Assembly: GCA_964546695.1 (NCBI GenBank)
Contig: CAZJKS010000002.1
Span: forward strand, 5,999-34,861
DNA: 28,863 bases
Source of the DNA: an uncultured Muribaculaceae bacterium
GTDB lineage: Bacteria; Bacillota_I; Bacilli_A; RF39; UBA660
Reading direction: 5' to 3'
Position 1 is the first letter of the stretch; the number at the start of each line of letters is the position of its first letter. Made by a program: the position numbers and the translations under genes. Below, piece by piece: positions 14,171-18,401 of the stretch. The notes under the pieces are model-generated. The model was not told where the DNA came from, searched no databases, and saw only the letters and a list, made by a program, of their open reading frames with translations.

Positions 14171-15505
14171 ATGAAAAAAGTATTGGTGTTTTTGATAGTT
14201 TTATTTGCTAGTATAATGATAGTACCAAATGCTTATGCAGCAGAGGGTGCAGTTGCTAGTTTAGATGGTGTTGAGTATACTAGTTTACAAGATGCTATTG
14301 AAAATGCAAATGGAAAAACTGTAACATTACTTTCTGATGTTACTGAGAGTATAACTATTTTTGAAGGTATAACAGTTACTTTGGATTTGGGTAGTTATAC
14401 AATTACGAATGAAGAAGGGTATGATACGATTACTAATTATGGTAATCTTACGATTGTTGGAAGTGGGACTGTTGATAATGTTTCTCATGGAAAAGCAGCT
14501 TTAAAAAATGAAGAAAAAGGTGTAGTTGTCTTAGAGTCAGGTACTTATATAAGAAGTAAGGAGACTGGTGTTAGTGCTGATGTGTCTGGTGGTAATTCAT
14601 TTTATACTATTCAAAACTATGGATATATGACAATTAAAGATGGTGTTCAAGTTTTAAATAATGGTAGTTTTTCAAGCTTACTAGAAAATGGTTTTTATAA
14701 TGGTAGTGAAAAGCAGTATGATGGTACTCCAACTTTAATTATTGAAGGAGGATACTTTAGTGGTGGTTTAAACACAATTAAAAATGATGACTGGGGTGTT
14801 TTAGTAATTAATGGAGGAACATTTACTAATGTTGCTCAAGCAGCAGTTCTTAATTGGAACAAAGCTACTATTAATGGTGGTACTTTTGAGTCTTCAAACT
14901 ATGTTATTTTAAATGGCAAATTAGATGATGTTATGGATACTGGAGAGTTAATAATTACTGGTGGTACATTTATTGCAGGAAGTGGTGATATTATTGGTTC
15001 CATGCGAGGCAATGATGATGATTTAGTTAATGTATTTGTTCAAGGTGGTATTTTTAATAAAGAAGTTAGTGCTAATCTATTAGATATTAACGATGATGAG
15101 GCTTTATTACTAAATGCTAATGGATATTATGAAATTGCTAAAAAACAGGCTGATTATAGTCAAGTTTATGAATTAATAGAAGAAGCTGATAATATTGATA
15201 AGTCATTATATACTGATGAGAGTGTAGAGGTATTAGAAGATGCTATTGCTAGTGTTGATTATAGTAAGAATGGCTTAGAACAGAGTGATGTTGATGCTAT
15301 GGCTTTAAATATTAAATTAGCAATAGATAGTTTAGTTAAAAAAGTAGAGGTAGTAGACCTAACAACTTCTCTAGAGGCTACTGTAGAGACTAATCCTGAG
15401 ACAAGTGATCCTATTTTACTTATAGTACTTGTTTTATTAGTAAGTAGTGTTGGTATTGTATTTACTGGTAGAGAATTATGTAATTTTCTATCTAAAAATA
15501 TTTGA
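14171..15505 (+). CDS. Surface protein: signal peptide, GGTF-repeat beta-helix-like region, FIVAR-like helical domain, sortase-like NPETSD motif plus TM
   Basis: MKKVLVFL...AYA signal; repeated IxGGxF motifs; ADYSQVYELIEEA...YTDESVEVLEDAIAS...QSDVDAMA FIVAR pattern; NPETSD then a hydrophobic helix; GAGGTG SD favours ATG 14171. Confidence 0.75.
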   Translation: MKKVLVFLIVLFASIMIVPNAYAAEGAVASLDGVEYTSLQDAIENANGKTVTLLSDVTESITIFEGITVTLDLGSYTITNEEGYDTITNYGNLTIVGSGTVDNVSHGKAALKNEEKGVVVLESGTYIRSKETGVSADVSGGNSFYTIQNYGYMTIKDGVQVLNNGSFSSLLENGFYNGSEKQYDGTPTLIIEGGYFSGGLNTIKNDDWGVLVINGGTFTNVAQAAVLNWNKATINGGTFESSNYVILNGKLDDVMDTGELIITGGTFIAGSGDIIGSMRGNDDDLVNVFVQGGIFNKEVSANLLDINDDEALLLNANGYYEIAKKQADYSQVYELIEEADNIDKSLYTDESVEVLEDAIASVDYSKNGLEQSDVDAMALNIKLAIDSLVKKVEVVDLTTSLEATVETNPETSDPILLIVLVLLVSSVGIVFTGRELCNFLSKNI

Positions 15506-15529
15506 CAACTTAATAATTTGTAGTAAAAT
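15502..15529 (+). promoter_or_regulatory. Sigma-A promoter of the T-box/orphan/thrS transcript
   Basis: TTGACA (15502-15507, containing the upstream TGA stop), 16 nt, TAAAAT (15524-15529). Confidence 0.65.
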
Positions 15530-15544
15530 AATATTTATAAATAC

Positions 15545-15745
15545 GTTATTAGTTAGGGACTTGATGAGAGAATACTTTTAATCTTAGAGACTTAACGGTT
15601 GGTGAAAGTTAAGAAAAGCTCTTTTGTTACTACCTTAATGAGTAGAGTTATGCAAAGTAATTCCGGTTAAAGCCGTTATTTTAATTAAGTTAAAAAAGGA
15701 TGGTATCGTGTAGTGTATGGCACTCCTATATATCATCCTTTTTAT
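15545..15745 (+). ncRNA. T-box riboswitch (Thr, specifier ACU)
   Basis: Stem I with AGAGA bulge and GGTTGGTGAAA loop (CTTAAC/GTTAAG, CTTTT/AAAAG, GAGAG/CTCTT helices); ACT-A at 15629-15632; AGTA stem II; CCGTTA box; antiterminator AGGA-TGGTATC-GTG...CAC-TCCT. Confidence 0.92.
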
Positions 15746-15768
15746 TATATAAAGATAGGAGAAAATAT

Positions 15769-16260
15769 ATGGGAAAGAAAAAAGCTTATTATAAGAGTTC
15801 AAAATCATGTGAAAATATTCATGTATTTATGGAAAGTTGGTATGGTGTTAAAAGTCATCGTCGTAAAAGAACAAGATTTCATCATAATGATATGCCGCTA
15901 TATTTTATCAATAGGGGAGTTACACCTCCTAAAGCTGTTTCATTAGATGTAGCATCTAAAGATAATTCTGATAAATATATTTATGTTAGGGATGATGATA
16001 ATAATATTAGATGTTATGGTAATAGTTTAGCACTTAATAAAGAAGATATCTTAAGAGGTAATTTAAGTGTTAAAGAAAGAGATAAAAAAAGAAGAGAGAT
16101 ACTTAATGATTTAGGTTATGGTTATGATGAGATAACTGGAGAAGTAGAATTGCTAGAAGTATTAGAAAATGAAAGATATATTGATGAGTTAGTGCCTACT
16201 GAAAAGGTTAATAGGCAAAAAACTATAAGTAAAAGACATTATTATGGAGGTGGAAGATAA
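15769..16260 (+). CDS. Orphan 163-aa protein between the T-box and thrS
   Basis: AGGAG SD (15757-15761) 7 nt before ATG 15769; host-like codon usage; stop 1 nt before the thrS ATG; no family recognised. Confidence 0.75.
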   Translation: MGKKKAYYKSSKSCENIHVFMESWYGVKSHRRKRTRFHHNDMPLYFINRGVTPPKAVSLDVASKDNSDKYIYVRDDDNNIRCYGNSLALNKEDILRGNLSVKERDKKRREILNDLGYGYDEITGEVELLEVLENERYIDELVPTEKVNRQKTISKRHYYGGGR

Positions 16261-16261
16261 A

Positions 16262-17998
16262 ATGGTAAATATTAAAGAAAGTGAATTGTTAATGCCACTT
16301 AATCATTCTTGTGCTCATTTGTTAGCAGAGGCAGTTAAGAAATTATATCCTGATGCTAAGTTTTGGGTAGGACCTGTAATAGAAGATGGTTTTTATTATG
16401 ATATTGATTTAGGAGATAAGACTCTAACAGATGAAGATTTACCTAAAATAGAAAAAGAGATGAAGAAGATTGCTAAAGGTAATAAAAAAATCATTCGTCA
16501 TGAGTTAACTAGAGAAGAAGCACTTGAGAAATTTAAGGATGATCCTTATAAAATAGATTTAATTAATAATATGCCAGATGATGAAGTAATTACTTGTTAC
16601 ACTCAAGGAGACTTTACTGACCTTTGTCGTGGTCCTCATGTAGATTCAACAAAAGAATTAAGACATTTTAAACTCTTAAGAGTAAGTGGTGCTTATTTTA
16701 AGGGAGACTCTAAAAATAAAATGTTGCAACGTATTTATGGGGTTTGTTACTATAGTGAAGATGATTTGAATAAGCATCTAGAATTCTTAGAGGAAGCGAA
16801 ACGTCGTGATCATAAAAAATTAGGTAAAGAACTAGGTTTATTTATGATTAGCGAATATGGACCAGGTTTTCCTTTCTTTTTACCTAATGGAATGGTTTTA
16901 AGAAATATTTTAGAAAATTTTTGGTATGAAGAACATACTAAAGAAGGATATGAATTTATTAAAACTCCTATTATGTTAAATCAAGAATTATGGGAAAGGT
17001 CTGGTCATTGGGATAATTATAGAGAAAATATGTATACATCTACAATAGATGATAGAACTTTTGCTATTAAACCAATGAATTGTCCAGGGGGTATGTTAGT
17101 ATATAAAAATTCTTTACATTCATATAAAGACTTACCAATAAGATGTGGTGAGTTAGGTCAAGTTCATCGTCATGAAGCAAGTGGAGCTTTAAATGGACTA
17201 TTTAGAGTAAGAACATTTACTCAAGATGATGCTCATATTTTTATGAGAGAAGACCAAATAGAAAGTGAGATAATTAGATTAATTAAATTTATTGATAGAA
17301 TTTATAGTTTATTTAACTTATCTTATGATATAGAATTATCTACAAGGCCAGAAGATAAATTTATAGGTAGTATAGAATCTTGGAACAAATCTGAGGAAAT
17401 TTTACAAAGAGCGTGTAAAGAAGCTGGGCATGATTGTAAGATAAATCCTGGTGATGGGGCTTTTTATGGGCCTAAACTAGATTTTCATATTAAAGATTCC
17501 TTAGGTAGAGTATGGCAATGTGGTACTATTCAATTAGATAATAATTTGCCAGAAAGGTTTGATTTAACGTATATAGATAAAGATGGTTCTAAAAAAAGAC
17601 CTATTATGTTACATCGTGTTATATTTGGTTCTATTGAAAGGTTTATTGGTATATTAATAGAACATTTTGCAGGATTATTTCCTCTATGGTTAAGTCCTCT
17701 TCAAGTAATAGTTATTCCAGTATCTAGTGAATATCAAAATGATTATGCTACTAGAGTATATGAAGAATTAAAGAATAATAATATTAGAGTAGAGTTAGAT
17801 AACCGTAACGAAAAACTAGGCTATAGACTAAGAGAAGCTCAAACTAGAAAGATTAATTATACTTTAATTCTTGGCGATAAAGAAAAGACCGATAATACAA
17901 TTAGTTATAGACGTCATGGTGAAAAAGATACTACAACAGTAAGTATAGATGAATTTATCAAACTATTAAAAGAAGAAATAGATACTAAAAAAATATAA
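16262..17998 (+). CDS. thrS: Threonine--tRNA ligase lacking the N-terminal TGS domain
   Basis: HSCAH and DLCRGPH editing motifs, RDHKKLG, KPMNCPG, HRHEASG, FRVRTFTQDDAHIF, GAFYGPKLD, WQCGTIQLD, HRVIFGSIERF; GGAGGT SD. Confidence 0.98.
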   Translation: MVNIKESELLMPLNHSCAHLLAEAVKKLYPDAKFWVGPVIEDGFYYDIDLGDKTLTDEDLPKIEKEMKKIAKGNKKIIRHELTREEALEKFKDDPYKIDLINNMPDDEVITCYTQGDFTDLCRGPHVDSTKELRHFKLLRVSGAYFKGDSKNKMLQRIYGVCYYSEDDLNKHLEFLEEAKRRDHKKLGKELGLFMISEYGPGFPFFLPNGMVLRNILENFWYEEHTKEGYEFIKTPIMLNQELWERSGHWDNYRENMYTSTIDDRTFAIKPMNCPGGMLVYKNSLHSYKDLPIRCGELGQVHRHEASGALNGLFRVRTFTQDDAHIFMREDQIESEIIRLIKFIDRIYSLFNLSYDIELSTRPEDKFIGSIESWNKSEEILQRACKEAGHDCKINPGDGAFYGPKLDFHIKDSLGRVWQCGTIQLDNNLPERFDLTYIDKDGSKKRPIMLHRVIFGSIERFIGILIEHFAGLFPLWLSPLQVIVIPVSSEYQNDYATRVYEELKNNNIRVELDNRNEKLGYRLREAQTRKINYTLILGDKEKTDNTISYRRHGEKDTTTVSIDEFIKLLKEEIDTKKI

Positions 17999-18050
17999 AA
18001 AGATAGCTAGTCCTATAAATAAAATATAGGTCCATTACTATCTTTTTTTT
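17997..18050. terminator. Bidirectional terminator between thrS and the convergent small gene
   Basis: Outer stem AAAAAGATAG/CTATCTTTTT, inner stem CCTATA/TATAGG, long T tract. Confidence 0.7.
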
Positions 18051-18297
18051 CACTATAATTTGTATTATTTTCATCAATATTAATATTACTTTCTTCTTCA
18101 TCGTTATTGTTATTAATAGCAGATGCTACTTTCATTAGAGTTTTAGCATTGCTAAATAATGGTTTAATTTGATATACAATAGGTATTGCTTGATTAATTA
18201 TTCCAAGTGTTCTTTGGGTATTATTTAAAATATTGTTCCAATTGATTCCTCGTTTTGGTATATAGTTAGGTATTCCCATATTATAATCATTATACAT
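18013..18297 (-). CDS. YqfQ/VrrA-family-like small protein
   Basis: LNNTQRTLGIINQAIPIVYQIKPLFSNAKTLMKV helical core, acidic Asn-rich linker, and a C-terminal GPIFYL resembling the family PKLYI end. Confidence 0.65.
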   Translation of the reverse strand: MYNDYNMGIPNYIPKRGINWNNILNNTQRTLGIINQAIPIVYQIKPLFSNAKTLMKVASAINNNNDEEESNINIDENNTNYSEKKDSNGPIFYL

Positions 18298-18321
18298 ATA
18301 AACACTACCTTTCCCTTACTT

Positions 18322-18350
18322 TAATATATGATTAATTTTTACTACTTGTG
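18322..18350 (-). promoter_or_regulatory. Candidate sigma-K promoter of the yqfQ-like gene
   Basis: Minus strand CACA (18350-18347), 16 nt, CATATATTA (18330-18322); fits mACm-N16-CATANNNTA. Confidence 0.6.
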
Positions 18351-18374
18351 ATTAATTTAAGAGAGTGGTATAAT
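18346..18374 (+). promoter_or_regulatory. Sigma-A promoter of pilC-pilD
   Basis: TTGTGA (18346-18351), 17 nt, TG-G-TATAAT (18369-18374). Confidence 0.65.
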
Positions 18375-18401
18375 TATTTTAAGAATAAGGAGGAGAGGGT
18401 T

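Follow-up and report, generated by a model that had tools for sequence, protein, structure and literature searches.

T-box operons and the thrS locus of the window

In T-box operons, the leader is usually followed directly by genes for synthetases, biosynthesis or transport. Anti-TRAP, a zinc-binding protein of 53 amino acids (aa) whose partner is TRAP, is the product of one small T-box-controlled gene. In Bacillus subtilis this gene (rtpA) lies in the at operon, where a Trp T-box precedes the small regulatory protein (PMC2494555, Table 2, ref. 34), and the leaders of B. subtilis thrS and thrZ are subject to tRNA-Thr-dependent antitermination (Putzer et al. 1992, cited in PMC2494555). For 8% of the T-boxes surveyed by Wels et al. 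2008 (PMC2494555), the function of the genes behind them is unknown or unrelated, and "tRNA ligase related hypothetical" open reading frames (ORFs) are annotated in front of aminoacyl-tRNA synthetase (aaRS) genes, an example being S. pneumoniae spr1471 behind a Thr T-box. The subject of this analysis is orfX, a gene for a 163-aa protein. As the first cistron, it comes after the terminator of a Thr-specific T-box and lies directly in front of thrS, the gene for threonyl-tRNA synthetase (ThrRS). It was found in a window of 28,863 nucleotides, meaning the whole stretch of DNA that was analysed, from an uncultured bacterium of the GTDB lineage Bacilli_A; RF39; UBA660 (contig CAZJKS010000002.1 of GCA_964546695.1, an assembly of 1.34 Mb in 233 contigs).

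The locus is similar to B. subtilis thrS and thrZ in having a Thr specifier, a T-box antiterminator and terminator, and a synthetase gene under the control of uncharged tRNA-Thr. It is unlike them in that a 163-aa cistron, apparently coupled to thrS, is found between the terminator and a synthetase gene whose product lacks the N-terminal TGS domain, and in that the leader scores only 51.6 bits, which is under the Rfam cut-off. As with anti-TRAP, the first gene of the T-box encodes a small non-enzyme protein; in contrast to anti-TRAP, orfX is dissimilar in sequence and is followed directly by the synthetase. The layout resembles that of the spr1471-type cases, which also have a small hypothetical ORF between a T-box and an aaRS gene. 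Unlike the single annotations of Wels et al., orfX belongs to a family of 119 clusters, is under purifying selection and has a confidently predicted fold that matches no other. In the literature, no paper was found that describes the orfX family or the position it occupies. The architecture is a variant of the known T-box layout, and the protein family is undescribed.

orfX is a protein-coding gene under purifying selection

orfX runs on the + strand from 15769 to 16260, with 163 codons from the ATG at 15769 and a TAA stop at 16258–16260, and a Shine-Dalgarno sequence (AGGAG, 15757–15761) can be read 7 nt 5′ of the start codon. The distance from the T-box terminator to the ORF with this element is 10 nt. 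Searches of a collection of 5.8 billion proteins gave 32 close homologues, each about 160 aa long. A profile search against 1.84 billion representatives, clustered at 50% identity, gave 119 clusters at E<=1e-3, 67 of them at E<=1e-10, with members of about 130–230 aa. Within the genus, which in all counts given here means Candidatus Onthousia-like gut metagenome-assembled genomes, the median ratio of nonsynonymous to synonymous divergence (dN/dS) of orfX was 0.19 at a dS of 0.64 (130 pairs), while the adjoining N-terminal part of thrS had a dN/dS of 0.06 at similar dS. In a sliding window, codons 1–40 of orfX had an omega of 0.03–0.05 at a dS of 0.8–1.0, and because dS is high where omega is so low, the constraint must lie in the protein, as opposed to an RNA element. 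The strongest constraint thus sits in the basic, His-rich N-terminal part. The reading frame is conserved as well, and these results show that orfX is a genuine protein-coding gene under purifying selection, far beyond what chance would give.

The protein is modelled by AlphaFold2 as an alpha/beta structure of two hairpins and five helices. The predicted local distance difference test score (pLDDT) was 76.5 with 17 sequences and 85.6 with 82 sequences, the latter with a predicted template modelling score (pTM) of 0.58, and both models have the same secondary-structure elements. The charge is distributed unevenly: residues 1–60 have an isoelectric point (pI) of 10.2 with a cluster of H, R and K, residues 61–145 have a pI of 4.5, and the C-terminal tail has a pI of 11.1. 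Residues H39, L46, V73, Y83, N85, R108 and L112 are nearly invariant throughout the family, and an N-R-x-K motif is present in the basic C-terminal tail of many members. These motifs are kept across members that are only 20–30% identical. The threonine content is 3.7% in the orfX family compared to 5.7% in the ORFs of the window, a mild depletion that would fit synthesis during a shortage of Thr-tRNA, although as evidence it is weak.

The Thr T-box leader and the junction with thrS

The leader was identified at 15539–15730 (+ strand) by the full model of RF00230 (model positions 1–219; 51.6 bits, E 1.2e-10). The Rfam gathering score is 93, and the match was found only under an E-value threshold. 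The specifier ACU lies at 15629–15631 in the Stem I specifier loop and is followed by A, a purine; five distant relatives have ACUACC in their leaders at this position of the model. The T-box sequence GGAUGGUAUCGUG is found at 15698–15710, and together with a hairpin ending in a U run it supplies the antiterminator, with its UGGN bulge, and the competing terminator that characterize the T-box class. This terminator hairpin (15693–15743, + strand) is an inverted repeat with a minimum free energy of −20.1 kcal/mol (z −2.3) that ends in U5; a simple terminator scan did not list it. The T-box in the window is most probably real. T-box leaders at homologous and related loci scored 50–114 bits, and those of the Onthousia genus only 50–64 bits, so that the latter fall under the gathering score and are missed by default annotation. 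The 5′ arm of the terminator is the T-box sequence itself (GGAUGGUAU), which is an unusual pairing scheme. The usual one, in which the terminator is formed with the 3′ half of the antiterminator, was seen in a relative (L044).

Directly upstream of the leader is a promoter-like site, TTGACA-16 nt-TAAAAT (15502–15529), which has 11 of 12 matches and was the best + strand site within 15400–18400. The promoter scan found no + strand promoter-like site between 15529 and 17301, the interior of orfX included. As far as the sequence can tell, thrS would have no promoter of its own.

The Shine-Dalgarno sequence of thrS, GGAGGTGG (16246–16253, + strand), lies within the final codons of orfX, with its GGAGGT core at 16246–16251. 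The G/R-rich C-terminal residues that orfX encodes over this element are kept in the family alignments. A single base (16261) separates the orfX stop from the thrS ATG at 16262. The thrS gene (16262–17998, + strand) encodes a 578-aa ThrRS that matches TIGR00418 with 746.5 bits; the Pfam domains are tRNA_SAD (editing), tRNA-synt_2b (the class II catalytic domain) and HGTP_anticodon, and TGS is absent.

A first-pass annotation, made from the sequence of the window, had described an ORF with a good Shine-Dalgarno sequence between the T-box and thrS, and the coordinates and the AGGAG element confirm it. Its statements that the thrS Shine-Dalgarno sequence lies in the last orfX codons and that the stop falls 1 nt before the thrS ATG agree with the reading at 16246–16262, and its basic, His-rich N-terminal part and acidic C-terminal part correspond to the pI values of 10.2 and 4.5 given above. 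It had called the protein an orphan. This holds in that no annotated family includes it, and no longer holds in view of the 32 close homologues and 119 clusters. It had also named a lack of purifying selection as a reason to give up its interpretation; the dN/dS of 0.19 speaks for selection.

The family lies beside thrS and is optional

Of the homologues for which the context was examined, nearly all are flanked by a Thr T-box on one side and a TGS-less thrS on the other. In the relatives search, a family member adjoined thrS in all 11 carrier genomes, nine of them with an Rfam T-box at the locus, and in genomes that have no orfX at thrS the query matched nothing elsewhere. Distant metagenomic members were found directly before a TGS-less thrS in seven of seven cases. 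A T-box before the family member was identified by Rfam at 13 of 15 loci and by eye at the remaining two. The stop/start junctions between family members and thrS are tight or overlapping.

A class-level profile search covered 399 genomes. It found members in 12 that belong to the same taxonomic family as the window, namely the window's own genome and 11 of the 49 sampled from that taxonomic family. A single further match, outside this taxonomic family, was a false hit inside a glycosyltransferase and was rejected. Including the window's own, 11 of the 13 class-level hits stand before thrS; at the other exception (L065), the member follows the RNase R gene and there is no thrS. Judging from this search, the orfX family appears to be restricted to a single taxonomic family, one of gut Bacilli with small genomes.

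Within the genus, 20 of 30 thrS loci carry a family member, 17 of them typical orfX genes and three divergent or longer (147–229 aa). Two of the ten loci that lack orfX have only the T-box. At the other eight (L022, L024, L026, L029, L030, L032, L035 and L041), the start of thrS overlaps the stop codon of the RNase R gene (ATGA), and no T-box was found in the four of these that were scanned with Rfam. These overlap loci look like a clean deletion of the leader together with orfX, an event that would place an essential synthetase under the control of another operon. Copies of orfX with internal stops were also seen (L055, L059 and L067). The pattern of presence and absence shows the family to be dispensable in many relatives.

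Three observations on distant members may be added. In distant relatives the order is RNase R gene, T-box, orfX, thrS. In GCA_028694645.1, an extra 71-aa ORF (L049, 4601–4816) is inserted between the family member and thrS. One of the seven distant metagenomic members lies with its thrS on a contig (L053) the genes of which translate only with TGA read as Trp, and the orfX family thus extends to a recoded lineage.

Unrelated genes occupy the same position before thrS

In the other families of the class, ThrRS mostly starts with a TGS extension of about 60 aa. A TGS-less ThrRS was found in every sampled genome of the window's family and also in three other families (f5, f7 and f23), and the class-level search with the orfX family profile found no member in those three. 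At 20 further TGS-less thrS loci a T-box was present in 20 of 20. In ten sister genera, the slot between T-box and thrS holds a dUTPase (PF00692; L098), one of three helical ORFs of 64–69 aa (L099, L102 and L104), other ORFs or nothing. The other ORFs include an unrelated one of 154 aa (L106), one of 91 aa (L103) that looks like a truncated member, with a match to the C-terminal half of the profile at E 5e-5 against a tiny database, and one of 275 aa with a weak match to the N-terminal half of the profile. The idea that the helical mini-ORFs are decayed copies of orfX was rejected (hhalign probability 0.1%). In another family of the class, a GNAT acetyltransferase was found in the slot in two of the three genomes examined (L107 and L109); a GNAT under Thr T-box control beside thrS may deserve separate attention.

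Whether or not it is related to orfX, each slot occupant has its stop at the thrS start or only a few bases away from it. Because unrelated occupants share this tight junction, the coupling is a property of the slot and not of the orfX protein, and because unrelated genes occur there, position alone is no argument for a threonine-related function. At some loci, the T-box stands directly before thrS and there is no ORF at all. As far as can be seen, the most widespread and probably oldest occupant of the slot is the orfX family, which spans many genera.

orfX is inherited with a mosaic thrS

orfX is about 80% identical in genomes whose ThrRS is either 94% or 68% identical to that of the window, which at first suggested that orfX had been transferred. 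Sliding identity along ThrRS showed that residues 1–190 are about 90–96% identical across most of the genus and residues 500–550 about 90%, while the catalytic core between residues ~190 and 500 (about 16830–17760) exists as two types that are only 34–46% identical over most of their length. By domain, it is the editing and anticodon-binding parts that are mostly ~90–96% identical between genomes. Each core type is seen at loci that have orfX and at loci that lack it, and independently of the presence of a T-box. Among orfX-positive loci, DNA identity is 76–93% for the T-box, for orfX and for the first 300 nt of thrS alike, and the thrS flank beside orfX has 84–93% DNA identity everywhere. Synonymous divergence is similar for orfX and thrS. 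Over 26 loci, orfX identities of 0.13–0.93 were compared with N-terminal ThrRS identities of 0.64–0.98; the Spearman correlation was 0.40, a value reached by two of 999 permutations. Since the identities track each other and ThrRS is a mosaic, orfX is inherited together with its neighbour and simply evolves much faster. Horizontal transfer or co-conversion of orfX was rejected, as the mosaic is in ThrRS itself.

The split of the ThrRS core seems to be family-wide, with overall identities of 56–57% versus 66–79%. It could result from recombinational replacement of the core, and it may be speculated that natural ThrRS inhibitors were the cause. A second ThrRS-like gene of 512 aa was seen on a 2-kb contig (contig C145 of G000, L013) and is present in four of 53 genomes of the genus. 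Its product has another N-terminus and is 40% identical to residues 136–576 of the window's ThrRS, and it is slightly nearer to the alternative core type (43–44% versus 36–39%). This gene may represent a paralogue or a resistance-type copy, or it may be due to contamination. The thrS gene behind orfX is most probably the cell's main ThrRS.

Searches for known families and folds

No family match was obtained for the window's orfX protein with Pfam, NCBIfam or PHROGs, nor for any of the 82 family members with Pfam. Sequence searches of the PDB with two profiles gave chance-level matches or none. Both models were compared with the PDB by Foldseek and with 48,161 PDB chains by VIA-align, as well as with the AlphaFold DB clusters, BFVD and the ESM Atlas; these searches brought up no fold relative (best Z 3.0, Foldseek E >0.1 in every library), and a feature search of the ESM Atlas with orfX gave no usable match. 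Several weak structural matches of residues 30–87 to a subdomain of ATP-grasp enzymes are not trusted. The best Z of 3.0 is well under the value that the notes to the tool give as usual even for unmatched models, and with a pTM of 0.58 the model may represent an open, non-globular arrangement. A predicted complex of ThrRS and orfX scored 0.01 against a mark of 0.32, which is evidence neither for nor against binding.

Several specific identities were considered and rejected. A trans-editing factor (tRNA_SAD/AlaX/ThrRS-ed or YbaK/ProX) found no support in Pfam, NCBIfam or fold matches; the linked ThrRS retains a tRNA_SAD editing domain of its own. A tRNA-binding cofactor with an OB fold of the Trbp111/Arc1p type (PF01588) was rejected on the lack of a Pfam match and on the alpha/beta model with its best Z of 3.0. 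The Cys/His pattern found in the genus (C14, H18, H30/31 and H38/39) was considered as a metal or HNH-like site, and of these residues only H39 is kept family-wide, with no nuclease match, which leaves such a site speculative. An attenuator leader peptide is at odds with a length of 163 aa, a dN/dS of 0.19, conserved motifs, a folded model and a location after the terminator. Longer hits that resembled domain fusions proved to be mis-called starts that read through the T-box.

Proposed role of orfX and alternative explanations

The best reading of these data is that orfX encodes a lineage-specific, optional accessory protein that is gated by the T-box, coupled to thrS, perhaps RNA-binding, and held in place by its position, and we consider this about evenly balanced between being right and being wrong. 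One promoter would feed the T-box, and orfX and thrS would be transcribed only when uncharged tRNA-Thr blocks termination. Ribosomes that finish orfX would halt over the Shine-Dalgarno sequence of thrS, one nucleotide short of its ATG, which would result in translational coupling. If thrS is the main ThrRS, read-through of the T-box would be continuous and homeostatic and not a burst reserved for starvation. orfX would then be made at a level that follows ThrRS, and the slot would deliver housekeeping-level expression matched to the demand for ThrRS, which would explain the presence of a dUTPase in the slot as well. For a gene between a riboswitch and an essential gene, relocation would break the control of thrS, and only clean deletion or replacement would be possible. 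Strict synteny would therefore be expected of a gene wedged in this way even where there is no functional tie. As to its activity, the likeliest candidate is the binding of nucleic acid, whether tRNA, rRNA or mRNA, by the highly constrained basic N-terminal domain and the N-R-x-K tail, although we regard this as doubtful.

Several points weigh against this interpretation. The suggestion of RNA binding comes only from the charge distribution and the small size of the protein, and no fold relative was found that would lend it a function. The trapping argument is one of reasoning. Linkage that remains strict down to 13% orfX identity could instead mean a functional tie to ThrRS or tRNA-Thr. In addition, the only RNA run found, a chicken gut metatranscriptome represented by contigs, contains relatives that lack orfX and in which thrS comes directly after the RNase R gene or the T-box, so that this run carries no information on orfX expression.

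The first-pass annotation had proposed a factor for Thr starvation or a partner of ThrRS. In its general form, such a dedicated helper would bind ThrRS, tRNA-Thr or the leader and act as a cofactor, as a chaperone of tRNA-Thr or as a feedback reporter on tRNA-Thr charging in the manner of anti-TRAP. The near-invariable position between Thr T-box and thrS, over 119 clusters and down to 13% identity, is what this explanation would predict, and the tight or overlapping junctions are of a kind common for subunits made in a fixed ratio. A conserved short motif in a basic C-terminal tail of low model confidence is typical of a docking peptide, and the T-box-controlled regulator anti-TRAP of B. subtilis offers a precedent (PMC2494555). 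Nevertheless, orfX has been lost from a third of the genus's thrS loci and from the majority of genera in the family, without a visible effect on the ThrRS architecture; both ThrRS core types occur with it and without it; the same slot is also filled by unrelated genes that are coupled in the same way; and TGS-less ThrRS enzymes are found in other families in which the profile has no match. We therefore consider a dedicated helper unlikely. What stands of the earlier proposal is the T-box control and the link to thrS, since the homologues do lie between a T-box and an aaRS gene, the check that the annotation had suggested. What counts against it is that the gene is optional and that similarity to editing or tRNA-binding domains, which the annotation had offered as possible functions, did not appear in the family searches; the profile and Foldseek searches gave no annotated family or fold relative. 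A stricter version, in which orfX is a dedicated cofactor or charging reporter with a new fold that is made in a fixed ratio and binds tRNA-Thr, ThrRS or the T-box RNA through its N-terminal domain and N-R-x-K tail, would make it a bacterial parallel to anti-TRAP or to helpers of the Arc1p/Trbp111 type, alike in logic but not by descent, and this we hold to be distinctly improbable. orfX is probably not a subunit of ThrRS, nor a stand-in for the missing TGS. A subunit would be expected beside every ThrRS of the type, and orfX is absent at 10 of 30 loci in the genus, while most of the family's genera lack it altogether.

That orfX replaces the missing TGS, either as the product of a split gene or as a functional substitute, would account for the lack of TGS in every linked ThrRS. 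However, hhalign compared the family with 12 TGS domains taken from the same taxonomic class and gave a probability of 0.3%, the 82 members have no match to Pfam TGS (PF02824), the predicted secondary structure differs from that of TGS, and a ThrRS that lacks TGS functions in the absence of orfX both elsewhere in the genus and in the three other families, which leaves such a replacement highly improbable. It is also conceivable that only the act of translation matters, by loading ribosomes onto thrS or shielding the transcript, and that the sequence of the protein is irrelevant. Every slot occupant does end a few bases from the thrS start, and the thrS Shine-Dalgarno sequence dictates the C-terminal residues. 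This explanation is largely refuted by the selection pattern, as the dN/dS is 0.19 overall and 0.03–0.05 in the N-terminal 40 codons at high dS; in addition, motifs are kept at 20–30% identity, a fold is predicted with confidence, and loci in which thrS directly follows the T-box manage without an ORF. We consider it very unlikely. We give hardly any credence to a selfish or mobile gene riding on an essential transcript, such as a homing endonuclease, part of a toxin-antitoxin pair or an insertion remnant, which the first-pass annotation had also raised. The patchy presence in the genus and, at first sight, orfX genes ~80% identical beside ThrRS of 94% or 68% identity would suit it. Yet this incongruence comes from the ThrRS mosaic, with a thrS flank that is 84–93% identical everywhere; there is no match to a nuclease, integrase or toxin family and no viral fold match; no flanking repeats were seen; and the divergence of orfX tracks that of the host gene. 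A milder version, in which orfX is a passenger, fits well.

Implications for annotation and neighbouring features

In this clade of uncultured gut Bacilli, the few bases between a Thr T-box terminator and thrS serve as a slot for different small genes in different lineages. The T-box is below the Rfam cut-off and the protein has no family, so that annotation pipelines overlook both and a conserved cistron in an essential operon goes unseen. The locus also advises caution against guilt by association, because strict synteny with an aaRS gene can arise from immobility beside a riboswitch. Should orfX act on ThrRS or tRNA-Thr after all, it would represent a type of synthetase accessory without precedent, and its fold would be a new one.

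Downstream of thrS, the terminator scan found no terminator-like site before the next ORF. This ORF, on the − strand at 18013–18297, encodes a 94-aa YqfQ-like protein (PF14181, E 5e-8) and converges on the end of thrS.

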